From contig CAYPAN010000001.1 in NCBI GenBank assembly GCA_964408725.1, positions 1 through 39,022 on the forward strand: 39,022 nucleotides of DNA. Reading direction: 5' to 3'. The translations under genes and the position numbers were made by a program. The DNA is from an uncultured Candidatus Saccharibacteria bacterium (GTDB lineage Bacteria > Patescibacteriota > Minisyncoccia > Phycocordibacterales > UBA9973). The notes under the pieces were generated by a model. That model was given only the letters and a program-made list of their open reading frames with translations, made no database searches and had not been told where the DNA came from. Shown here one piece after another: positions 22,334-34,380 of this stretch (its first letter is position 1; each line of letters begins with the position of its first letter).

Positions 22334-23548
22334 TTACTTAAGGAAATTCTTGCCGCGCATTTTTCTATGGTAAGCAATGGCAAACCTGTGCGCCTCGCTA
22401 TTTGCAAGTAATATTTCCTTCTTATGTTTTCGGGTAAGTTTTTCATCACCCATAATTGCCTTTGGTTTATGACGTTCGTCTTTCACAACCGAAACAATCG
22501 GAATTGAAAAACCGGCTTTATTTAAGATATATTTGGCAGTGTTTATTTGAGCCATACCGCCATCTACAACAATCAAGTTAGGATAAGGCCATTCTCTATG
22601 CGCCAGACGTCTTTCCAACATTTCTTTTAAGGCACCCGTGTCGTTTGAAACACTCTGCGTCTTTATTTTGAATTTCCTATATTCATTCTTCTCTACCTCC
22701 CCGTTTTCTATAACGACCATAACGCCAACCATATTTCTGCCTGCCATATGCGCGATGTCATACGCCTCAACACGGATACCTCGGCCGAGGGAAGGGCGCA
22801 GGGACGAAAAAATGAAAGGGTTTCCGGTTTCATTTTTTATTAACGCCACATCATTAATATGTTGCAGGGCAAAAAGCTGTCTTTTTATTTCGCCGGCTTT
22901 TTCAAACTCACCCAGTTTAGAATACGCATTCATTTCTTTCTTAAGATTTTTGAAAATCTGCTTTTTTTTGCCTTTAAAAAACAAAATTATATTTTTGATA
23001 TTCTGTAAATACAGTTTTTTATCGTCCAAATCCGGAATCAGGTTTATTTGCCTGTAAAATTCCATATAATTCTTACTTTTTTCGTCTAAAAATGGAAAAA
23101 TCTTTCTTATTATCTTTATAGCCTCGCGAAGTTGGGAACCGTTCGGATAAGGTCCGAATACTTTATAAAATAGAGACGGTTTTAAATTCTTGCCTCGCAC
23201 TATAATCACTTTTGGCAAGTCTTCTCTAGTTATGCAAATATAATTAAAACTTTTATCGGATTTTTCTTTAGTATTGTATTTCGGCTGGTATTTTTTTATA
23301 AGAGAAGCTTCTAATATAAGCGCTTCAAGCACGTTATCTGTCTCTCGCCAGTCTATTTGGGTTGCTTTAAATATTAAATCCACTAAAAGCGGACCCCTGG
23401 TTTCAATTAAATCTTTTCCAAAATAACTTTTTATCCTATCCCTAAGTGATGTCGCTTTGCCAATATATAAAATCTCTTTTCCTTTGAGAAAAAAATACAC
23501 ACCGGGCTTTTGGGGTATTTTAAGTTTTTTGAAATATTTTATATTCAT
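22334..23548 (-). CDS. uvrC: Excinuclease ABC subunit C, short form lacking the C-terminal (HhH)2 domain
   Basis: GIY-YIG (PGVYFFLKGKEILYIGKATSLRDR), a UVR-like helix (EFEKAGEIKRQLFALQHI) and an RNase-H-like endonuclease domain (IEAYDIAH..., VVDGG, EAHRFAIAYHRK). The protein ends at 404 aa, against about 600 aa for E. coli UvrC. Confidence 0.85.
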   Translation of the reverse strand: MNIKYFKKLKIPQKPGVYFFLKGKEILYIGKATSLRDRIKSYFGKDLIETRGPLLVDLIFKATQIDWRETDNVLEALILEASLIKKYQPKYNTKEKSDKSFNYICITREDLPKVIIVRGKNLKPSLFYKVFGPYPNGSQLREAIKIIRKIFPFLDEKSKNYMEFYRQINLIPDLDDKKLYLQNIKNIILFFKGKKKQIFKNLKKEMNAYSKLGEFEKAGEIKRQLFALQHINDVALIKNETGNPFIFSSLRPSLGRGIRVEAYDIAHMAGRNMVGVMVVIENGEVEKNEYRKFKIKTQSVSNDTGALKEMLERRLAHREWPYPNLIVVDGGMAQINTAKYILNKAGFSIPIVSVVKDERHKPKAIMGDEKLTRKHKKEILLANSEAHRFAIAYHRKMRGKNFLK

Positions 23549-23599
23549 GGTTCTATTTTATTACCATGACCCTGAGATTATCGAATGGGTCATAAAAAA

Positions 23600-26194
23600 T
23601 CATTTACGCAGAGCTTTTTTGAGATACTTCCCGGTATAACTCTTCGGACTATTCGCTATTTCTTCAGGCGTGCCTTTGGCTACCAGATTCCCCCCACTTA
23701 CTCCGCCTTCGGGACCAATATCTATAACATAGTCCGAGCTTTTGATAATATCAAGGTTATGTTCAATCAAAACCACAGTATTCCCTTTTGACACAAGCTT
23801 GTTCAGTACTTCAAGAAGCTTCACCACATCGTCATAATGCAGTCCCACTGTCGGTTCATCAAGAAGATAAATAGTCTTTTCCAAATATGGGCGAAAAAGT
23901 TCGCTGGAAATTTTCACCCGCTGGGCTTCTCCGCCGGAAAGTGTGGTTGCCGACTGGCCAAGCTCCAGATAACCCAGACCCACTCCCGAGAGCGTATACA
24001 AGCGGTCATAGATTGCGGGAATATCTTTAAAAAAGATAAGTCCTTCTTCCACGGTCATATGAAGCACTTCATATATATTTTTTTTCTTATATTTTACCGT
24101 CAGTGTTTCTTTGTCAAAACGTTTTCCGTTGCAGACATCGCAAGTAACGTACACGGTGGGCAAAAAGTGCATCTCCACGGCAATTTGACCATTGCCCTCG
24201 CAGGCTTCACAGCGTCCGCCCTTCACATTAAAAGAAAAGCGGTTGGCTTTCCAGCCGCGAAGACGCGCTTCTTCGGTAGTAGCAAATAAATCTCGGATAT
24301 GGGTAAAAGCGCCCGCATAAGTGGCCAAATTTGAGCGCGGAGTCCTGCCTATCGGGGACTGGTCAATCAAAATAGCGCGCGACAAATATTCAGTGCCGGT
24401 AAATGAAGAACAGTTAAAAATTTTCACTGTGCGATATTTGCGTTCATAACGGGCCTGAAGATTTTTATACAAAATTTCATACATAAAAGAACTCTTGCCG
24501 GAACCGGATACCCCGGTAATGGATGTCATTATGCCCAAAGGAACTTCAACATTTAAATTTTTGATGTTGAAAATTTTCCCGCCTGTTATACGCAACGCTC
24601 CTTTTCCGCCCCGGCGTTTTTCCGGCACCGGAATTTTTATTTCTTCGCGAAGATAAGAAAGGGTTCTGGAATTGTTTGTATTCTTTTTTGCGGTTAATAA
24701 TTCTTCCAGCCATCCGGAAACTATAACTTCGCCTCCGTGCACACCAGCCTTCGGGCCTATATCCACTATATAATCGGACGCGTAAATCGTATCCTCATCG
24801 TGTTCAACAATTAAAATGGTGTTGCCTAAATCACGTAGGTTTTCCAATGTTTTAATCAAACGGTCATTATCGCGTTGATGAAGCCCTATAGTCGGCTCAT
24901 CCAAGACATATAAGGCGCCGACTAATCTAGAGCCCAGCTGGGACGCCAGGCGAATGCGTTGGGCTTCTCCGCCGGAGAGAGTATTGGCTTTACGAGAAAG
25001 CTGTAAATAATCGAGTCCAACATCCAACATAAACTGCAAACGCGCTTCTATTTCACGAACAACGGGCAGAGATATTTCCTTTTCCTGGTCCGATAGCTTT
25101 AAAGTTTTGAAAAATTCCGCTGCCTCTATTATTGTAAACGATGATAATTCAAGAATGTTCTTGCGTTTATGCCCGGCACTGATAAAAACATTTAATGCTT
25201 CCGGGCGCAACCGCGCTCCGTGACAAGCATCACAGGGTTCCTCACCCATAAAATATTTTGTGCCCAAGCCATGGCAAACTTCACAGGCACCATACGGAGA
25301 ATTGAAGGAAAAAAGACGCGGTTCAATTTCCGGAAAAGAAAAACCGTCATTCTTGCAGGCAAATTTCGCGGACATTGTGAACTCTTCTTCGGAACCGAAA
25401 GAAACGGCCACTAAACCGTCGGATTCAATGAGCGCCCGCTCCAAGGCTTCCGCTAATCTGGTGCGACTTTCATCTTTGTGGTCATAAAATTCGTGTACTG
25501 CAAAATGGTCAACCAAAATATCAATATTATGCGTTTTGTTCTTGGAAAGAATTATCTGTTCACGCAATTTTTTCATTACTCCATCCAAGCGAATCTCGGA
25601 AAATCCTTTACCAAGCAAATCATAAAGCAATTGATAATATTCCCCTTTACGGCCCCGGACAATGGGAGAGAAAATATTCATTTCGGTTTCATCCCATTCT
25701 ATACCCATTACAGATTTCTTATTTTTCTTGTTCTTTTCAAGCGCTTTTATTTTTTCCAGGACAAAATTCAAAATTTCCTCGTTTGAAAGTTTTTTAATTT
25801 CTTCTCCACATAGAGGGCAGTGAGGATGCCCGATGCGTGCATACATTACGCGCAGGTAATCATATATTTCGGTAATGGTCGCCACCGTAGAACGCGGATT
25901 ATTGGAACGGGATTTTTGGTCAATGGAAATAGCCGGCGAAAGCCCGGTTATTTCGTCCACATCAGGCTTGGGCATTTGATTCAAAAATTGCCGCGCGTAA
26001 GAAGACAAGGATTCCACATACCTCCTCTGCCCTTCGGCAAAAATTGTGTCAAAAGCAAGAGAGGACTTGCCGGAACCCGAAACACCGGTAATGGCTATCA
26101 TACTGTTGCGTGGCATTTCCACATTTATATTCTTCAAATTATGGGTTCTAGCCCCTTTTATCGTTATTTTATCTATATTTTTATCCAATTTCAT
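23600..26194 (-). CDS. uvrA: Excinuclease ABC subunit A
   Basis: Start at ATG 26194 ([23 protein letters not shown]). Two ABC modules (GVSGSGKSS twice, LSGGEAQR twice) and Cys-rich zinc modules ([15 protein letters not shown]...[14 protein letters not shown]...CDVCNG). Confidence 0.95.
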
Positions 26195-26215
26195 AAAAAT
26201 TAAATAATACCAGAA

Positions 26216-26246
26216 CCACACCCGCCGTCGTTCCTAGGGGGTGTGT
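26216..26246 (-). terminator. Possible uvrB terminator hairpin
   Basis: On the minus strand, CACACCC-(about 15 nt)-GGGTGTG is followed by a T-rich tract. The large loop makes this weak. Confidence 0.35.
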
Positions 26247-26304
26247 ATCTATATTAAGATAAGGAGATTATAACACAAAAAGCCAATTTAACAAAAAAGT
26301 TACA

Positions 26305-28617
26305 TCAAATTTTGATTTTTTCTTTTAAAACAACTATCTCGTCACGCAAGATTGCCGCCGTTTCGAAATCCAGCTCTTTTACCGCTTTATTCATCTCCTT
26401 TTCTTTTATTTTTATTATTTTTTCGTAAACTGTTGTATTTCTTTCTTCATCCGAAAGTAAACTGTTTTTTATAGAATCACTTTCGTTTTTCCCTTTATTA
26501 CTTTTATCTCTGGCAAACGCTTTCTTGAACAATTCAACATCAAGTGCCAATTCCGCATTGACCGTTTTCCCGTGTTCGCTTTCCATTTCCTCGGTTATGT
26601 CCTTAATCTTTTTCATAATCGTTTTCGGCGTGATATTGTGTTTTTTATTGTAAGCAATTTGAATATTACGTCGACGGGTGGTCTCTCCTATCGCCCTCTC
26701 CAGTGAACCCGTCATAACGTCCGCGTAAAGAATGACTTTGCCGTATACATTGCGGGCCGCGCGGCCTATGGTCTGGATTAACGAGGTTTCCGAACGCAAA
26801 AATCCTTCTTTGTCGGCGTCCAGTATGCCGATTAATGCCACTTCCGGCAAATCAAGCCCTTCACGCAGAAGATTTACCCCCACTAAAACATCAAAATCGC
26901 CTTTTCTGAATTGCGTCAGAATTTTTATTCTTTCAATCGTCTTTATATCGCTATGCAAGTATTCCGCTTTTATTTTTTTGTCTTTCAAATAAGTGGAAAG
27001 GTCCTCCGCCATTTTTTTGGTGAGTGTCGTGGCAAGAACACGAAAACCCATCTTGATCGTTTTTTCTATTTCCTTAATAAAATCCTGAATCTGACCCGGA
27101 TAAGGCCCAGAGGTATACTCGGAGGAGTATTCGCTGCGGCCAGAACTTTCTTGCCCTTCCAAGATAGAGTGCGAACGACGGAGAGAATTATCCTGAGCAA
27201 GACTTTCCGAAACCGGCCGAACAGAAATCTCCGGGTCAACAAGCCCGGTTGGACGGATAATCTGTTCCACCATTTGTTCGCTTTGAGCGCGTTCCTGGTC
27301 GGAAGGCGTAGCGCTAGTGTATATGACAGGCCCGATTCTTTCACTAAATTCTTCATATTTTAAAGGTCTGTTGTCTTTGGCCGAAGGCAAGCGAAAGCCA
27401 TATTCCACAAGGGTATTTTTGCGGGAAGCATCTCCCGCGTACATACCCTGGAGCTGTGGCAGGGTGACGTGAGATTCGTCTATGACAGTCAAAAAATCAG
27501 GAATATACTCGGAGGAGTATTCGCTACTGCCAGAACTTTCTTGCCCTTCCAAGATAGAGTGCGAGCGACGGAGAGTATGTTCCTGATTTTTTATATGCGG
27601 AAAATAAGAAAGTAATGTTTCCGGCGGTTCGCCTTCTTTTTTGCCGGATAAATGTCTTGAATAATTTTCAATACCGTTGCAATAACCGACTTCACGAATC
27701 ATAGCTAAATCATAATTTGTCCTTCTTTTAATGCGTTCTGCTTCCAATAATTTTCCTTCTTTCTCAAATTTTTTCAATTGGCTCGTTAATTCTTTTTTTA
27801 TCTCCACCAGCGCTTTCTTTTTCTTCACGTCCTCAGTTATAAAATGTTTCACCGGAAAAATAAACAATGGTTCTTCCTCGCCTGCTCCCGACTTGGGAGG
27901 GCGGGCAGGTTTGATAATCTGTGAAGAAATCGGGTCAATTTTTTTAATTTTTGAAATTAATTCATTTTGTATTTCCACCTGATACATTATTTTTTCAGAT
28001 ATGGGCATAATTTCCACCCGAGAACCGATTGAACGGAAAGTTCCCGGATTTAAGTTGGCATTTGTGCGCTCAAAATGAATTTCAATCAATTTTTTCATTA
28101 AAGCCATTCGGCTTATTTTCATACCGATTTTCAATTTCAAATTAACCTTTTCATATTCCACAGGAGACCCCAAGCCGTAAATGCAAGAAACTGATGCCAC
28201 TATTATCACATCACGTCTGGTGAGCAATGCTTCCGTCGTGGCATGACGCAGACGGTCTATTTCTTTATTGATTTGTGCGTCTTTTTCAATGTATGTGTCT
28301 GACGCCGGCATATAAGCCTCCGGCTGATAATAGTCGTAATATGAAACAAAATAATGCACAGCCGCGTCCGGGAAAAATTGCTTAAATTCCTGTGCAAGCT
28401 GGGCGGCCAGAGTTTTATTGTGTGCTATGACAAGCGTCGGCTTATTATATGCGGCTATCACATTAGCCATTGTAAAAGTCTTACCTGTGCCCGTGGCCCC
28501 TATCAATGTTTGTTTTTTCATTCCCTTTTCAAGCCCATTTAGAAGCTCCGAAATAGCCTTGGGTTGATCTCCCGCTGGCTGAAATGGTTTATGTAGTTTA
28601 AAAATATTTTTTGACAA
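26305..28617 (-). CDS. uvrB: Excinuclease ABC subunit B, carrying two in-frame repeat-element insertions
   Basis: Walker A GATGTGKTF, FVSYYDYYQPEAY, motif II VIDESHVT, GFRLPSAKDNRPL, LLREGLDLPEV, QTIGRAARN and a C-terminal UVR domain. It is 770 aa against about 670 aa for typical UvrB. The two inserts of about 33-36 aa account for most of the excess. Confidence 0.95.
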   Translation of the reverse strand: MSKNIFKLHKPFQPAGDQPKAISELLNGLEKGMKKQTLIGATGTGKTFTMANVIAAYNKPTLVIAHNKTLAAQLAQEFKQFFPDAAVHYFVSYYDYYQPEAYMPASDTYIEKDAQINKEIDRLRHATTEALLTRRDVIIVASVSCIYGLGSPVEYEKVNLKLKIGMKISRMALMKKLIEIHFERTNANLNPGTFRSIGSRVEIMPISEKIMYQVEIQNELISKIKKIDPISSQIIKPARPPKSGAGEEEPLFIFPVKHFITEDVKKKKALVEIKKELTSQLKKFEKEGKLLEAERIKRRTNYDLAMIREVGYCNGIENYSRHLSGKKEGEPPETLLSYFPHIKNQEHTLRRSHSILEGQESSGSSEYSSEYIPDFLTVIDESHVTLPQLQGMYAGDASRKNTLVEYGFRLPSAKDNRPLKYEEFSERIGPVIYTSATPSDQERAQSEQMVEQIIRPTGLVDPEISVRPVSESLAQDNSLRRSHSILEGQESSGRSEYSSEYTSGPYPGQIQDFIKEIEKTIKMGFRVLATTLTKKMAEDLSTYLKDKKIKAEYLHSDIKTIERIKILTQFRKGDFDVLVGVNLLREGLDLPEVALIGILDADKEGFLRSETSLIQTIGRAARNVYGKVILYADVMTGSLERAIGETTRRRNIQIAYNKKHNITPKTIMKKIKDITEEMESEHGKTVNAELALDVELFKKAFARDKSNKGKNESDSIKNSLLSDEERNTTVYEKIIKIKEKEMNKAVKELDFETAAILRDEIVVLKEKIKI
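27105..27198 (-). repeat. Hairpin repeat element, copy A (in frame in uvrB, between VRPVSE and GQIQDFIKEI)
   Basis: The 68-nt core at 27118-27185 matches copy B at 65/68 positions and the polA copy at 63/68. It encodes SLRRSHSILEGQESSGRSEYSSE. The flanking arms are only weakly complementary. Confidence 0.85.
27491..27592 (-). repeat. Hairpin repeat element, copy B (in frame in uvrB, 8 codons upstream of the DESH box)
   Basis: The 68-nt core is at 27508-27575. The 20-nt arms at 27491-27510 and 27573-27592 are reverse complements at 19/20 positions. Total length is 102 nt, or 34 codons. Confidence 0.9.
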
Positions 28618-28645
28618 TATTTTATATTAACACTTTTTAGAATTT

Positions 28646-28774
28646 TTATTGAATATCGTAGTAGTTTTCAGGAGAATAAACCTCATATCCTTTCATAATA
28701 ATTATATAAGCAAAGACAGAACTTATTATTGTAAATATAAGCATAAATATGAATGTTTTATTAGTTGCGGACAT
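28646..28774 (-). CDS. Possible 42-aa hydrophobic miniprotein
   Basis: Hand-translated as MSATNKTFIFMLIFTIISSVFAYIIIMKGYEVYSPENYYDIQ. It has one TM-like span, lies just upstream of uvrB, and is below the ORF-track length cutoff. Confidence 0.25.
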   Translation of the reverse strand: MSATNKTFIFMLIFTIISSVFAYIIIMKGYEVYSPENYYDIQ

Positions 28775-28867
28775 AGTTTTAATTATAACATTTATTTATT
28801 TCAAAAAGTAAAAATCTCTTGATTTTTGAGCACATTTCCTATATATTTGAGTTGCTTGTCAAATTTC

Positions 28868-28915
28868 CATAGTTAATGTTTCCGCCCGTAGCTCAGTTGT
28901 AGCGGATTCAACTGA
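28868..28915 (+). pseudogene. Decayed partial duplicate of the tRNA-Lys 5' region
   Basis: CATAGTTAAT (28868-28877) and CCGCCCGTAGCTCAGTTG (28882-28899) are identical to 28942-28951 and 28955-28972 of the intact gene 73-74 nt downstream. The remainder no longer folds as a tRNA. Confidence 0.6.
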
Positions 28916-28954
28916 CTATTTACAAAAAGTTATTAAAACCGCATAGTTAATTAA

Positions 28955-29027
28955 CCGCCCGTAGCTCAGTTGGTAGAGCAGATCCCTTTTAAGGATAAGG
29001 TCGTCGGTCCGATCCCGACCGGGCGGA
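28955..29027 (+). tRNA. tRNA-Lys (anticodon UUU)
   Basis: Hand-folded. Acceptor CCGCCCG/CGGGCGG with discriminator A. D arm GCTC-AGTTGGTA-GAGC. Anticodon arm GATCC-CTTTTAA-GGATA (27:43 G/A mismatch). T arm GTCGG-TCCGATC-CCGAC. Oddities are the C1:G72 pair and a C at T-loop position 55. Confidence 0.8.
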
Positions 29028-29032
29028 CAAAT

Positions 29033-29680
29033 TTAAAAAGCATCCAGTAAAAATTGCTCAAATACAGACTCGGCGTCTTTGCCATCTTTGCGGGCTTCCG
29101 GCAGAAGGTAAGAAAGCTTGCCGGCAAAATTTTCAAGCTCGGAAGAAGTATATTTTCGGAAATCTTTTTTCAGTATCATATCTTTGGTTTTCCAAAACAA
29201 AACACCGGCGAGTTCTTCCAGGGCCACGTCTTTTTCCAAGGCTTGCCTAAAATGAACCCATAAATTAAGCTTATCCCGCTCCCCAAATGCATTGGCCAGC
29301 ATAAAACTGTTAAATCTTTCCTTTTTCTCTTTAGGTAATTCAAGTATACTGATTTTCGCTTTTACTTTTTCAAAAGCATCTAAAATTTCTTTATTTAACT
29401 TTCCTTCTAAAAAAATAAAATCATTACCGGATTCACTTATTATATTCAACTTATTTAAAATAAAATTAAGCGTTTCTTCCTTTTCAAAAATATTTGTAAA
29501 AATTACCGCGCACTTTTTAAAAAACAGTCCAGCGCCGGAGTAAAAACTCTCCGTTTCCATTTCTTTAAAGTCATTTTTGCCGATAAAAAAAGTTTCCGTA
29601 CCGGCTGGCATAGACTTTATTAATTTTTCATAACTCTCGTGTTTATTTTTTGCATCATCTCCACAAAAAAGATAAATCAT
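29033..29680 (-). CDS. DNA polymerase III delta subunit-like protein (short HolA)
   Basis: IYLFCGDD start and a helical C-terminal half (FMLANAFGERDKLNLWVHFRQALEKDVALEELAGVLFWKTKDMI) resemble HolA. It is only 215 aa. Confidence 0.5.
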   Translation of the reverse strand: MIYLFCGDDAKNKHESYEKLIKSMPAGTETFFIGKNDFKEMETESFYSGAGLFFKKCAVIFTNIFEKEETLNFILNKLNIISESGNDFIFLEGKLNKEILDAFEKVKAKISILELPKEKKERFNSFMLANAFGERDKLNLWVHFRQALEKDVALEELAGVLFWKTKDMILKKDFRKYTSSELENFAGKLSYLLPEARKDGKDAESVFEQFLLDAF

Positions 29681-29681
29681 A

Positions 29682-30167
29682 TTAGAGTTTCACTGATTTT
29701 TTATATTCCAAATACGGAGCGCCGTATTTTTCCGCAAGAATTCTTTCTTCTTTTTTGAGAAAGAAAAATTTGGCCACAAAAATTGAAATTATTGAAAAAA
29801 TAACCACAAAGAAAGAATCGGCTACGATGCCAAAACCCAACACTAAAAGAAAAAGTCCAAAATGCGTCGGGCTTCTGGTAAACCTATAAGGCCCGCGGTA
29901 AAATGTCTCCTTGCTTAGGCTCTCCTTCTCCAAATTACGGGAGGATTTTTGTGCCCAAAATACTAAAAGCGTACCGAGAACCAAAAAAACAATGCCAATG
30001 GGCATCAAATCCAGCTTCCCAAAAATTTTAAGGGGAAAAACAAAATCCAAGAGAAGCCCGAGCAAAAAGGAGATAAAAAAACAAAGATACGAATGCGCTA
30101 AAATTTTATGCACTTTATTTTTGTTTTTACCTCCAAATTGTTCTGCTGTAGTTCCTATTTGCATCAT
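29682..30167 (-). CDS. Isoprenylcysteine carboxyl / phospholipid methyltransferase-family membrane protein
   Basis: Four or five TM spans and the YRFTRSPTHFG...L motif of the ICMT/PEMT family, with a C-terminal EERILAEKYGAPYLEYKK. Confidence 0.7.
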   Translation of the reverse strand: MMQIGTTAEQFGGKNKNKVHKILAHSYLCFFISFLLGLLLDFVFPLKIFGKLDLMPIGIVFLVLGTLLVFWAQKSSRNLEKESLSKETFYRGPYRFTRSPTHFGLFLLVLGFGIVADSFFVVIFSIISIFVAKFFFLKKEERILAEKYGAPYLEYKKSVKL

Positions 30168-30191
30168 TTTATAATAGCATATAATGTACCA

Positions 30192-32645
30192 TTATTTAAC
30201 CTCTCCAAAATTATTTCCGGAACCGGAATGTACTAAGAGCGGAATACTAGTTTCATAATGTAAATATGAGCGTTTTAGCACTGTTTGCATAGCATTTTTT
30301 ATCACTTTTCCCGCCTCTTCAAGTACTTTATCTTCCACTTCATAAACTAATTCATCGTGAATTTGAAGCACCAGATGAGCTTTTTCTAAAATATTCGCTT
30401 TTTTCAAGTCTTCTTCCGCGTATCTTATGGCCAGTTTTATAATATCGGCCGTGGCTGTGCCCTGGACTGGCGCGTTTATGGCCGTGCGTTCAGCCATATT
30501 TTTCAAAAATGGAATTCGTGAATTTATATTGGGAAAATATCGGCGCCTGCCGAATAATGTTTCCGTATATGAATGTTTCATAGCAAAAACTTTTACCTCT
30601 TCCAGATAATCCCGCACGCCACTAAATTGATTGAAATAATTGTCGTAAAATTTTTGCGCTTCAGGGCGGGTACCTCCTAAACTTTTACGCAAAGCTGAAA
30701 CCCCCATACCGTAAATAATGCCAAAATTTATCACTTTCGCTTTGCGCCGCATTTCAGCGTCCACCTTATCTATAGGCACGTTAAAAACAAAAGAAGCCAC
30801 TCCGGCGTGAATATCTTTACCTTCACGAAATATTTGCGTCATTTTTTTATCTCCAGAAAGCATCGCCACAACCCGAAGTTCAATCTGGCTGTAGTCAAAA
30901 GCCAAAAGTTTACAGCCTTTTCCGGCTATAAAACCATTCCTTATTTTTTTGCCCAGTTCTGTTTTTATCGGCAAATTCTGCAAGTTTGGGTCTTGGGAAG
31001 AAAATCTGCCGGTCGTTGTGCCATTCTGCAAAAATTTAGCGTGCAGACGACCGTCTTGCGCCACCATTTTGGGAATTACGTCAATATAAGTGGAAAGCAG
31101 TTTTTGCAACTCTCTATAAGACAATATTTCTTTTATGATTGGATTATCTTCTTCCAGTTCTTCCAGCACTGAAACTTTGGTCGAAAAGGAGCCGCTGGCG
31201 CTTTTTTTCTTACTTGATTTCATTCCCATTTTACCGAAAATAACTTCTCCCAATTGTTTAGGTGAATTAATATTAAATTCCGTTCCTGCCATTTTGTAAA
31301 TTTTCCCAGTTAGCTTGTCCAATTCTTTATGGTATTCCTCTGATAAATTTTCAAAATATTTTTTATCTATCAATATGCCATAATCCTGCATTTCTTTTAC
31401 TATGGGCATTATGGGTCTTTCTATTTCTTCATAAACTTTTTCCAGTCCTTTTTCTTTCAATTGCTTAAAAACATACTCTCGCGCTGTTTTAAAATCATTC
31501 GTCTTTCCAAAATGCAAAATGTCTTCCAAAGAGGGATTGGCAATGTCCGAATTTAAGAGCCATAGGGCAATGGAGGTTTCCTGAAGCTCCTTTTCGTCCA
31601 CAGTATGTACCCCTTGATGATTGTTCTCGGAGGAGTATTCGCTGCTACCAGAAATATCTTGCCCTTCCAAGATAGAGTGCGAGCGACGGAGAGAATTATC
31701 ATCAAGGGGTACTTTTTCTTTTTGAAACTTCCCTGCAAAAAAACTTTTCAATCGCGCAAATAAACTTCTAAATTCAAACAAGGAAAAAATATTCTCAATT
31801 TTTTTCAAATCGGCATTCTGCCAAAAAGTATTTTTCGGCAATGTAAAATTTATCGGCGCATCAGTCCTGATTTTGGCCAGAGTTTTGGAAAACAAAGCTT
31901 CTTCCTCGTTGTTTTTTATAAGTTCCAATATTCTTGGAGAAATATCATTTTTAATGAAAATACTTTCGTCTTTTTTTAATTTTTTATAAATTTCTTCTAT
32001 AGTTCCGAAATTAACAATAAGATTGGTGGCTGTTTTTTCACCAATACCCTTTATACCAATAATATTATCCGACGGGTCGCCCCGCAGACCTTTGTAATCC
32101 GGTAAAAGTTTCGGCTTAAATCCAAACCTACCAATCACCTTTTCCTCGTTGTACAAGATAGTGTCATTAATTCCTTTTTTTAATGTATAGACTTGCACTT
32201 TTTCTCCGTCTACCAATTGCATTGTGTCCATATCACCCGAGGCAATAATTATATTTATTTTTTTGTCTTTTTTTAATTCTTCCACTATAGTACCCAGCAC
32301 ATCATCCGCCTCAAAACCCGGAGCATCATAAATAGGAATATTAAACGCCTCAAAAATCTGCCTGGAATTTTTCAGTTGCAGAATAAGAGCATCATCGGTT
32401 TTTGCTCTTCCAGCTTTGTATCCTTCATACGCTTCGTGTCTGAAAGTTTTTTGTGGTAAATCATAACAGGCTACAATATAGTCCGGTTTTAAATCGGTAA
32501 TTATTTTCATCAGCATACTGGTGAGTCCATACAAGGCTCCTGTGGGCTCGCCCTTGGACGATAAAAACTCCGGTAAGGCGTGATAAGCACGATGTATTAT
32601 CGCGTGAGCATCCAGCAACACTAATGTCTTTTTATCTTTCTCCAT
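30192..32645 (-). CDS. polA: DNA polymerase I, carrying one in-frame repeat-element insertion
   Basis: Start at ATG 32645 (MEKDKKTLVLLDAHAIIHRAYHALP, 5'-nuclease domain). Pol A motifs: LLAFDYSQIELRV (A), RRKAKVINFGIIYGM (B), LQIHDELVYEV (C). The upstream 46 codons of the ORF track lack homology and overlap the pilB start. Confidence 0.95.
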   Translation of the reverse strand: MEKDKKTLVLLDAHAIIHRAYHALPEFLSSKGEPTGALYGLTSMLMKIITDLKPDYIVACYDLPQKTFRHEAYEGYKAGRAKTDDALILQLKNSRQIFEAFNIPIYDAPGFEADDVLGTIVEELKKDKKINIIIASGDMDTMQLVDGEKVQVYTLKKGINDTILYNEEKVIGRFGFKPKLLPDYKGLRGDPSDNIIGIKGIGEKTATNLIVNFGTIEEIYKKLKKDESIFIKNDISPRILELIKNNEEEALFSKTLAKIRTDAPINFTLPKNTFWQNADLKKIENIFSLFEFRSLFARLKSFFAGKFQKEKVPLDDNSLRRSHSILEGQDISGSSEYSSENNHQGVHTVDEKELQETSIALWLLNSDIANPSLEDILHFGKTNDFKTAREYVFKQLKEKGLEKVYEEIERPIMPIVKEMQDYGILIDKKYFENLSEEYHKELDKLTGKIYKMAGTEFNINSPKQLGEVIFGKMGMKSSKKKSASGSFSTKVSVLEELEEDNPIIKEILSYRELQKLLSTYIDVIPKMVAQDGRLHAKFLQNGTTTGRFSSQDPNLQNLPIKTELGKKIRNGFIAGKGCKLLAFDYSQIELRVVAMLSGDKKMTQIFREGKDIHAGVASFVFNVPIDKVDAEMRRKAKVINFGIIYGMGVSALRKSLGGTRPEAQKFYDNYFNQFSGVRDYLEEVKVFAMKHSYTETLFGRRRYFPNINSRIPFLKNMAERTAINAPVQGTATADIIKLAIRYAEEDLKKANILEKAHLVLQIHDELVYEVEDKVLEEAGKVIKNAMQTVLKRSYLHYETSIPLLVHSGSGNNFGEVK
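31607..31712 (-). repeat. Hairpin repeat element, polA copy (in frame in the linker after the 5'-nuclease domain)
   Basis: The 68-nt core is at 31626-31693. The 22-nt arms at 31607-31628 and 31691-31712 pair with 20 Watson-Crick pairs and 1 G/T pair out of 22. It encodes VPLDDNSLRRSHSILEGQDISGSSEYSSENNHQGV. Confidence 0.9.
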
Positions 32646-32682
32646 TGTGTAAATTATAGCATTATTGCTATAATTTATAATT

Positions 32683-34380
32683 ATGGCGGACTTTGACGAA
32701 GAAAAACAAAATAAGCAATTGGATGATTTACACAGAGAGGAAGAAGAACAGCTGGTAGCAATGCTGGCGGAATCAAAATACAAGCTTCCTTATATCGACC
32801 TGTCTCGTTTGGGCATAGATAATGAAGCACTTCGAGCAATATCCGAAAAGGATGCCCGTGAACTGAAGGTGGCCCCTTTTAAACTTTTTGGGAAAAATAT
32901 TTTTATAGCGGTACGTTCCCCTTCAGATGACCTTTTGGCAAAACTTAAAGACCAAATAGAGAGAAAGGATTTAATCCCTACTTTTTATATGGTGTCGTTG
33001 GCATCCTTAGAAAAAGTTTGGGGCAGATATAAAGAGTTATCGTTGGCAGAGAGTTCTAAGGTTGGGGGCGTGGACATTTCTGCGGAAGTTTTAAGAGAGG
33101 TGGCAAAAGATATAAAAACAATAAAAGACATAGAAAAATTAATTGCGGATATAAATGAAGGAAATTCGATACACAAAGTTTCACATTTATTGGAAATAAT
33201 ATTAGCCGGAGCGATAGCCATAAAAGCTTCCGATATACATATAGAACCCCAGCAGGAAAAAAGCAGGTTGAGAATTAGATTGGATGGTGTCCTTCACGAT
33301 GTTATATTTTTTGAAAATAATGTTTATCATCTTCTTAACTCGCGAATAAAGCTTCTCTCTGGAATGAAATTAACTTCAACGATAGCGCAGGACGGACGTT
33401 TTAGTATTGTGGAAGAAGCGGAAGAAATAAGCATTCGTTCTTCTATGATTCCCGGGGCATACGGCGAATCAATCGTTATGCGTATTTTGGACCCGAAATC
33501 AATCCAGGTAAAACTTGAAGATTTGGGCATAGAACCTTTTCTATTTTCTATAATAGAAGAGGAAATCGCGAAGCCAAACGGCCTTATATTAGTCACTGGT
33601 CCTACTGGTTCCGGAAAAACGACCACTCTTTACGCATTTTTGAGAAAAATTTATTCTCCGGAAATAAAAATAATAACCATTGAAGACCCGATAGAATATC
33701 ATTTGACAGGCATAACACAGACTCAAACAAATGACGAAAAAGGATACACATTTTTGGAAGGCTTGCGTTCCGGCTTGCGTCAGGACCCAGACGTGGTAAT
33801 GATAGGTGAAATACGAGACGCGGAAACAGCCAAAATCGCCATAGAGGCGGCTCTAACGGGACATATGGTATTTTCTACTTTACACACCAACAATGCGGCC
33901 GGAGTCATTCCGCGTTTGATTGACCTTGATGCCAATCCAAAAATTATGGTTTCGGCTTTATCTCTTTCCATTGCCCAACGTCTAGTGCGCAAGCTTTGTC
34001 CATTTTGTAAAATCGAAAAAGCTCCCGATGAGAAAGAAGCGAAAACTATGAAAATAATAATGGACGGGATAAAAGAAGAAGGTAAAAATCTTTCAAATTA
34101 TAATATAAATCCCGATGCGCCTATTAAATTCTTTTCTCCTGTCGGCTGTGATAAATGCAATGTGACGGGATACAAAGGACGAATAGGTATTTTTGAAGCA
34201 ATTAAAACCGACGAAGCTATAGAAAAAATAATTCCGGAAAATCCAAGCGAGCGTGAAATAAAAAAAATTGCCCGGGCTCAAGGAATCCTTTCTATGCGTC
34301 AAGATGGCATAGTAAAAATATTAAACGGTATTACTTCATTTGAAGAAGTGCAAAGCGTAGTTGACCTGTTGGAGGAATAA
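32683..34380 (+). CDS. pilB: Type IV pilus / type II secretion assembly ATPase (GspE/PilB family)
   Basis: N-terminal GspE_N-like domain, Walker A GPTGSGKTTT, Asp/His boxes (IMIGEIRD, VFSTLHTN) and a tetra-Cys motif (CPFCK...CDKCNVTGYKGR). Confidence 0.9.
   Translation: MADFDEEKQNKQLDDLHREEEEQLVAMLAESKYKLPYIDLSRLGIDNEALRAISEKDARELKVAPFKLFGKNIFIAVRSPSDDLLAKLKDQIERKDLIPTFYMVSLASLEKVWGRYKELSLAESSKVGGVDISAEVLREVAKDIKTIKDIEKLIADINEGNSIHKVSHLLEIILAGAIAIKASDIHIEPQQEKSRLRIRLDGVLHDVIFFENNVYHLLNSRIKLLSGMKLTSTIAQDGRFSIVEEAEEISIRSSMIPGAYGESIVMRILDPKSIQVKLEDLGIEPFLFSIIEEEIAKPNGLILVTGPTGSGKTTTLYAFLRKIYSPEIKIITIEDPIEYHLTGITQTQTNDEKGYTFLEGLRSGLRQDPDVVMIGEIRDAETAKIAIEAALTGHMVFSTLHTNNAAGVIPRLIDLDANPKIMVSALSLSIAQRLVRKLCPFCKIEKAPDEKEAKTMKIIMDGIKEEGKNLSNYNINPDAPIKFFSPVGCDKCNVTGYKGRIGIFEAIKTDEAIEKIIPENPSEREIKKIARAQGILSMRQDGIVKILNGITSFEEVQSVVDLLEE

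Follow-up and report, generated by a model that had tools for sequence, protein, structure and literature searches.

The uvrB gene of a patescibacterial genome recovered from a metagenome contains two short repeats of nearly the same sequence, one with an intact hairpin stem and one whose stem no longer pairs. What such a repeat is, how it comes to lie in frame in a conserved repair gene, and why the second copy has lost its stem with its core intact are the questions that this locus raises. The window, by which we mean the whole stretch of DNA that was analysed, is contig CAYPAN010000001.1, positions 1 to 39,022; it belongs to a metagenome-assembled genome of 626 kb in 62 contigs, labelled G000 in our comparison with other genomes of its genus. 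On the minus strand it carries uvrB (26305..28617), in which lie copy A of the repeat (core at 27121..27182) and, 390 nt further upstream in the gene, copy B (27491..27592). The reading that we prefer, with a probability of about 70%, is that copy A is a genuine, translated member of a non-autonomous family of hairpin repeats, each built of a 62-nt core and a site-specific stem, and that a change in length in its 3' arm put an inherited stem out of register.

Results

The 770-amino-acid open reading frame (ORF) was identified as UvrB by alignment with structures in the PDB and by its Pfam domains, and it is collinear with solved UvrB proteins except for two inserts and one run of ten extra residues. 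Its alignment with UvrB of Bacillus caldotenax (2fdc; E 1.6e-216) breaks at query residues 341-373 and 470-504, at which points the 2fdc chain runs on without a gap (330 to 332 and 427 to 426), so that each break marks a clean insert in a protein that is otherwise conserved and collinear. Insert A, of 35 residues, separates VRP(T) from (K)GQIDDL at the beginning of helicase domain 3, and insert B comes immediately before the DESH motif. The uvrB frame stays open through insert A, which reads VRPVSE-SLAQDNSLRRSHSILEGQESSGRSEYSSEYTSGPYP-GQIQDF, and the 62-nt core, coding for RRSHSILEGQESSGRSEYSS, is intact; 2fdc has VRPTKGQIDDL at this place. Two claims of the original prediction, that copy A is an in-frame insert with an intact core and that reference UvrB lacks it, thus hold. 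The ten extra residues are a separate matter: they form the stretch KPARPPKSGA (residues 236-245; window 27883-27912) in the region of domain 2, and are missing from the consensus of relatives as well as from solved UvrB.

A repeat search, a 59-nt pattern and blastn all find exactly three copies in the 626-kb genome (27114-27196, 27504-27586 and 31622-31704), with 93% mutual identity, none being expected in shuffled sequence. They lie in one orientation and one reading frame. Copy C (31607..31712, minus strand) is in the linker of polA and has a 22-bp stem of unrelated sequence, while copy B has a 20-bp stem whose 3' arm consists of host codons for P-D-F-L. The core of copy A is identical to that of copy B at 59/62 positions (95%); over the longer repeat the two differ at 6/83 positions, and the flanks of each are unique. 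The covariance model matches copy A at 27107-27196 with 88.1 bits. All three copies fall within a cluster of uvrC, uvrA, uvrB, two small genes and polA (22337..32783, minus strand) that makes up 1.7% of the genome. A degenerate fourth copy lies outside the window, on contig C9, in tgt around '...SLSEHKKLENQKKLLSHGSHSNLD...FPQALFGIVQGG', where fragments such as GGCTCGCACTCGAACTTGGA are all that is left and where seven other species have intact copies; blastn and the covariance model both miss it.

The locus is the same in independent data. Over 8.3 kb it is 100% identical in contigs of 14-101 kb from three separate ENA assemblies, apart from one mismatch in one of them, and the 770-residue UvrB and two single-residue variants occur on 7 contigs in a large protein collection, the variant residues lying outside the inserts. 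Neither the assemblies nor the protein collection held a UvrB allele without the insert, the next relative being only 84% identical.

Beyond this genome, the pattern was scanned against one genome per prokaryote species and gave 41 matches, every one in a metagenome-assembled genome of Candidatus Nomurabacteria or Paceibacterota. Within the window's genus, a covariance model made from 43 copies detected the element in 75/212 genomes, with 1-5 copies each, and retrieval of all matches yielded 127 distinct copies. Among 400 genomes of the order to which this genus belongs, matches outside the genus were limited to weak, purely intergenic relatives in one other genus. Essentially the whole family thus belongs to a single genus of Candidatus Nomurabacteria, in the Paceibacteria of the candidate phyla radiation. 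The genome-wide census that had been proposed with the original prediction thus gives three copies in the genome and 127 in the genus. A scan of the region against Rfam 15 returned no described RNA family at or near the gathering score, the sole match being a chance one to a lncRNA (E 7.7), and the element, 102-106 nt with its stem, has no ORF of its own.

Most copies (118/127, 93%) lie in long open frames of 11 different host genes, and every genic insert has a length that is a multiple of three. The commonest host is uvrB, with 25 copies at site A and 24 at site B (49 in all), followed by polA (30), tgt (7), recG (7, all inverted), the CCA-adding enzyme gene cca (6), uvrA (5, at three sites), uvrC (4, at two sites), recJ (3, at two sites), leuS (3), carA/carB (3) and one other protein gene (1); nine copies, mostly diverged, are non-coding. 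The uvrC-uvrA-uvrB-polA cluster accounts for 88/118 genic copies across the genus, and repair genes, recG and recJ included, for 11/16 distinct genic sites. Inverted copies were seen at sites that are filled in the sense orientation elsewhere, as would be expected if the core can flip between its inverted arms, and they too keep the frame open. Six genomes have a family member at both uvrB sites. The original prediction had called two insertions in one essential gene striking: both are real, but double occupancy recurs, and uvrB is a repair gene that is not generally essential.

Some of the less usual placements deserve a word. Two genomes have the element at the carA-carB junction (L162 in G127 and L183 in G098). 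In one of them it sits at the 3' end of carA and lets the frame run on into carB, which makes an ORF of 1246 residues and possibly an element-mediated gene fusion; in the other it lies in the spacer between the two genes. Two diverged non-coding copies (L182; G031:C10, 1-2781) lie just upstream of a locus resembling a diversity-generating retroelement, with a reverse transcriptase, a four-helix-bundle accessory protein and a pilin-like target ending in ...GYVRCVR, a neighbourhood that is probably a coincidence. The distant core relatives in the other genus (L190, L191, L194, L195 and L197) occur only between genes and have closing stems of 18-20 bp, with a run of A to one side and of T to the other, in the manner of bidirectional terminators; they may represent the original, intergenic form of the element.

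The stem and the core are maintained in different ways. Arms are 20-22 bp long, and their sequence differs at almost every site and in almost every species, with at least four pair types at most positions, and yet 770/880 cells at arm positions 1-20 (~88%) are Watson-Crick pairs; pairing falls to chance at positions 21-23. In a 90-column alignment all 14 inner arm pairs have changed on both sides, and the covariation score of 0.425 (0.118 in shuffles) was reached by 0/500 shuffles and fell to 0.07-0.10 when the 3' partners were slid by 1-3 columns. One arm is often genuine host sequence. The 3' arm of site-B copies reads CCT GAT TTT TT, codons for P-D-F-L that are present in species with the site empty, and the 5' arm is their reverse complement, following their synonymous differences from species to species. 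Copies at site A differ in which arm comes from the host: in G006 and G010 it is the 3' arm (YPGQI codons), in G113 the 5' arm (PVSE codons). Comparison of filled with empty sites shows no direct duplication of the target; what it shows instead is an inverted copy of one flank.

Conservation of the core is at the level of nucleotides and not of peptide: its variability is the same at codon positions 1, 2 and 3 (column entropy 0.565, 0.585 and 0.597), and inverted copies are read as a different peptide; a function for an RRSHS-like peptide motif was rejected on these two grounds. The core is made up of blocks that do not vary and a hypervariable segment with a fixed length of 14 nt, outside which pairwise core identity is ~83%, set against 66-80% for uvrB coding DNA of the same species compared with G000. 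A guide-like role for the hypervariable segment was also rejected, different sites of one genome having the same segment. Mismatches in the arms have a polarity: counted on the peptide-sense strand, A.C outnumbers G.T among sense copies (106:39), inverted copies (14:2) and non-coding copies (6:0). This polarity follows the element in the inverted and non-coding copies also, and it points to folding of the strand opposite the peptide sense, which here is the plus strand of the window, and not to folding of the host mRNA. The conserved end of the core (27121-27129, GGAGGAGTA on the plus strand, and likewise in copies B and C) reads GGAGGAG on that strand and CUCCUCC on the mRNA strand, which resemble a Shine-Dalgarno and an anti-Shine-Dalgarno sequence, respectively; no start codon follows at a suitable distance.

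Cores are homogenised within genomes. Mean within-genome core identity is 0.808, a value reached by 0/2000 permutations of genome labels within sites, whose mean is 0.761. In the six genomes with both uvrB sites filled, core identities between A and B are 0.71, 0.84, 0.90, 0.95, 0.98 and 1.00, at least 90% in 4/6. The site-B copies of G000 and G158 have non-host arm sequence in common and are thus orthologous, while the core of each resembles the other copies of its own genome, a combination that argues for gene conversion rather than independent insertion.

The same loops are filled repeatedly. In a quick UvrB tree made with the inserts masked, in which 17/52 inner branches are well supported, site occupancy shows no more clustering than when its labels are shuffled (35 changes, compared with 37.4). 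Both loops (the equivalents of 27087-27207 and 27491-27592) also carry unrelated hairpin inserts elsewhere (L054-L060, L063, L064, L068), among them, in G006, G007 and G021, a type that reads 'GL.GG...HL.L.GTPP..GG' and, in G001 and G020, a palindrome of 13 bp; both are general hot spots for small in-frame inserts. Some of the alleles that are empty at site B (L062-L070, in G002, G003, G010, G011, G013, G017 and G018) have a loop of one or two residues (YFP-K-DFL, YFK-T-DFL) where outgroups have the seven-residue HKADGSP; G010 has its short loop in a clade in which the site is otherwise filled. These short loops may be deletion scars of a former hairpin.

Copy A departs from this pattern in its stem. 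Its 5' arm in gene sense, GAAAGTCTTGCTCAGGATAATTCTC (27183..27207, minus strand), faces a proximal 3' arm of GAGTAT followed by ACCTCTGGGCCT (27103..27120, minus strand), and 11/20 positions pair, a value that is joint third-lowest of the 127 copies and the lowest of the 35 that score at least 80 bits (the next value is 14, the median 18). Over the shorter interval considered in the original prediction, GCCCAGAGGTATACTC (27105-27120) against GAGAATTATCCTGAGC (27183-27198), there are 10 Watson-Crick pairs, 1 G.T and 5 mismatches, in line with the claim of about 10 pairs in 16. Folding agrees: copy A has z values of 0.02 and -0.55, no better than shuffles, where copies B and C have -3.4 to -6.9, and the description of copy A as structurally relaxed was well chosen. 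The middle helix had been misread. Copy A does have A at base 27175, where copies B and C have G; the resulting TTCGC/GCGAA helix, though, is not an alternative but the usual one of the family, with U-A at that pair in 36/43 aligned copies, while copies B and C have the minority state, a G.T wobble on the plus strand. (This helix was fixed by the search pattern for the seed copies, and its invariance among them carries no weight.)

The history of the broken stem can be followed through its relatives. In the tree G000 is sister to (G172, G006, (G158, G010)), and the 5' arm of copy A, GAAAGTCTTGCTCAGGATAATTCTC, is the arm found in G006 and in G010 (GAAGAATCTGCTCAGGATAATGCTC). In those two genomes it pairs at 19/20 positions with the host codons TAT CCN GGN CAG ATT C, the 3' side reading GAGCAT/GAGTAC plus TATCCNGGGCAGATTC. 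In G000 the 3' side reads GAGTAT-ACCTCTGGGCCT-TATCCGGGTCAGATTC: 12 extra in-frame bases (T-S-G-P; plus strand 27103-27114) stand between GAGTAT and the codons for Y, P, G, Q and I (27087..27102, minus strand), which the DNA of empty and filled sites marks as the ancestral partner of the 5' arm and which are now displaced by 12 nt. This partner has also drifted synonymously (CCT to CCG, GGG to GGT) with no matching change in the 5' arm, whereas two pair changes, both fully compensated, separate G006 from G010 in this stem. The 12 bases, ACCTCTGGGCCT, occur in G000 only and are missing from the orthologues in G006, G010 and P0004. The last of these, the closest relative on record (84%), retains only the 3' half of the element, and G158 has a 27-residue remnant at site A. 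A tandem duplication was rejected as the source of the extra bases, the similarity being too weak.

These alignments make the site-A insertion an old one in the clade, predating the split of G000, G006 and G010. The suggestion that copy A is an older copy is borne out to that extent; as an account of its decay it falls short, since equally old orthologues keep perfect stems. We conclude from the comparison that an indel that shifted the register, and not age, is what appears to have broken the stem. The core of copy A is among the best of the family, ranking 11/127. That core matches copy B at 59/62 positions compared with ~53/62 for its orthologue in G006, and a segment, GAAAGTTCTGGC, common to copies A and B is carried by the orthologues of neither. 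The closer match within the genome suggests, and is best explained by, conversion of the core of copy A by copy B.

Discussion

Our findings fit a selfish or neutral element that would spread, or be re-templated, through a strand-specific single-stranded hairpin, a DNA form on which some enzyme would act. Copying of the flank by fold-back synthesis (template switching) would build its stem or heal it, in the way known for quasipalindromes; this would yield an inverted copy of either flank in one step, and the cores would be homogenised by gene conversion. In such a scheme copy A would descend from the insertion common to the sister species; the 12-nt in-frame length change in the 3' arm would have shifted the stem out of register, pairing would no longer be restored and the arms would drift, while the core would be kept near the consensus, probably by conversion from copy B. 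The protein would most likely tolerate the insert as a disordered surface loop, as structural modelling weakly suggests.

Several points weigh against this account. Translation of the insert is deduced from open frames, and the AlphaFold2 model of UvrB, based on a 13-sequence alignment, is a poor one with a mean pLDDT of 52, the inserts being its least confident parts. The statistics on mismatches and on identity are drawn from related, and hence non-independent, sequences. Parsimony with a small number of taxa decides whether the 12 nt were gained here or lost in relatives. Template switching as the source of the arms is a model, and the mode of spread is deduced; no mobilising enzyme was found, and no contig of this genome has a Y1 gene. 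Finally, a neutral model by itself leaves the bias towards repair genes unexplained, unless local spread or relaxed selection is added; behind the crowding of copies in the repair cluster there may be local spread, a relaxation of selection on repair genes, or some use to the host.

One candidate mobiliser was a Y1/HUH transposase-like protein (Y1_Tnp, PF01797; ~210-250 residues), of which 155/212 genomes of the genus have 1-14 copies (for example L198-L203, G028:C34:5376-5597 and G008:C8:5034-5261). It was rejected as such: its genes occur in 57/75 genomes that have the element and in 98/137 that do not, and none is adjacent to an element. In two genomes a Y1 gene lies immediately upstream of polA. 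No autonomous partner was found near the nine non-coding copies. We nevertheless entertain, as a tentative idea that is more probably wrong than right, that the family is an undescribed kind of bacterial mobile hairpin, in which the 62-nt core would be recognised as a strand-specific single-stranded fold and, at insertion or repair, the ~21-bp stem would be made by inverted copying of either flank of the target. Such an element would leave no direct duplication, could be inverted in situ and could exchange its core between copies, and it would jointly explain the recurrent hits on the same loops, the covarying stems and rare 'unhealed' copies like copy A.

The hairpins could instead be a signal in cis that is useful to the host, such as an RNase III site or a protein-binding site that co-regulates the excision-repair cluster and other repair genes, with copy A having lost the function. 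A stem of about 20-22 bp is roughly the minimum length for RNase III, so the constant stem length would fit, as would the concentration of genic copies in the cluster, the repair genes among the other sites (recG and recJ included), the nucleotide-level conservation of the core with its variable segment of fixed length, and the compensatory changes that keep the stems of orthologues. We consider this improbable all the same. Only 75/212 genomes carry any copy, the uvrB sites are filled in a scattered manner on the tree, close relatives have decaying copies, insertions occur in tgt, cca, leuS and carAB too, the same loops hold unrelated hairpins in other species, and the mismatch bias follows the polarity of the element and not the mRNA strand, even in the inverted recG copies. 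The chances are similarly slim that copy A is a one-step chimera, produced by recombination in the core between uvrB alleles or element copies with different arms. Its 5' arm is of the G006/G010 type, its 3' side (E-Y-T-S-G-P-Y-P) is like the SSPYP/SGLYP type of G007, G115, G160 and G181, its hypervariable segment matches that of G007, and cores do exchange sequence within genomes; yet segment-wise identity of uvrB across site A reveals no switch of nearest relative, at a resolution that is low with relatives all 66-80% identical, and the host-codon partner is displaced by exactly 12 nt, as a simple indel predicts.

Removal of the insert, by intron-like excision or by ribosomal bypass, so that UvrB protein is made without it, is suggested by the long stem that brings the insert boundaries together in most copies and by the proximity of the inserts to highly conserved motifs, a preference of homing introns and inteins. 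It is very hard to reconcile with 118 genic copies that all keep the frame open in multiples of three, the inverted ones among them, with stems in which one half often consists of host codons that are essential (PDFL, YPGQI) and could not be taken out, with the absence of a match to any Rfam family, and with copy A itself, which lacks the stem in a gene that is intact and fixed in the population. As for an artefact of assembly, raised in the original prediction as what would undo it, a 62-contig metagenome-assembled genome with repeats that are 93% alike is a setting in which collapsed or chimeric repeats are to be feared, but the agreement of three independent assemblies over contigs of up to 101 kb, the differences between the copies, their unique flanks and the filling of the same two sites in many other species leave it next to no credibility. 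This returns us to an inherited hairpin repeat whose stem was put out of register as the preferred reading of copy A.

Seen in this light, copy A is an informative yet ordinary member of its family, unusual only in combining an unpaired stem with an intact core. It is a natural control that separates upkeep of the core from upkeep of the arms: without the stem the host gene is open and fixed, and without the stem the core stays near the consensus. There is also a practical side, in that the inserts inflate and fragment alignments of UvrB, PolA, UvrA, UvrC, RecG, RecJ and Tgt in Patescibacteria, and masking them is advisable in marker phylogenies.

Among known systems, inteins and homing introns are similar in distribution only, with patchy and recurrent occupancy of conserved positions in replication and repair proteins. 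Inteins have Hint-fold splicing blocks of at least ~130 residues and nucleophiles at their junctions; at ~34 codons the present element is too small, it has no splicing motif, endonuclease or conserved peptide, and the 35-residue insert A lacks conserved junction residues. [quoted passage not shown] REPINs, which are hairpins of paired REP repeats mobilised by RAYT transposases, and hairpin-ended derivatives of IS200/IS605 (HUH Y1) resemble the family in a hairpin of ~100 nt, a strand-specific signal consistent with single-stranded DNA, the absence of a target duplication and, as in this genus, abundant Y1 genes. REPINs, however, have conserved REP arms and a variable loop, the reverse of what we see, go with a RAYT gene that the repeats flank, and are extragenic where 93% of the present copies are genic, and the PF01797 genes are neither associated with the element nor adjacent to it, and absent from this genome. 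The family thus fails the defining tests of classical MITEs and of REPINs. Quasipalindrome mutagenesis by template switching (Ripley's model, studied in E. coli) perfects an inverted repeat in one step and makes an inverted copy of a flank, as the arms would require; it is a mutational process and not an element, and it leaves the conserved core, the constant stem length and the excess of A.C over G.T unexplained.

The best parallel is with the Rickettsia palindromic elements (RPEs), reportedly described by Ogata et al. in 2000. These are palindromic repeats of 100-150 bp, often in frame in housekeeping genes, with old and degenerate copies (PMC10969869, PMC1779305). The present family is like them in being a hairpin-capable repeat of ~100-150 bp in a reduced genome, with no coding capacity for its own mobility, repeatedly inserted into housekeeping genes of different kinds, in frame and where the protein fold allows it, and found between genes as well, with degenerate copies that can still be recognised. 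It differs in belonging to Patescibacteria and not Rickettsiales, with no sequence relation shown, and in having 1-5 copies per genome instead of tens to hundreds. RPEs have been described with a conserved peptide, unlike the present core with its lack of codon periodicity. The site-specific, covarying stems and the preference for recurrent loops set the family apart as well. Stems partly made of host codons and kept by compensation, a core conserved at the nucleotide level and exchanged within genomes, and a strong concentration in one excision-repair cluster are features that have not been reported for RPEs. The family seems to work like RPEs, and we file it as their analogue and not as a member. 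On that analogy it would represent a second, independent case of selfish hairpin DNA in the protein-coding genes of a reduced genome, the first being Rickettsia and the second, described here, a lineage of the candidate phyla radiation.

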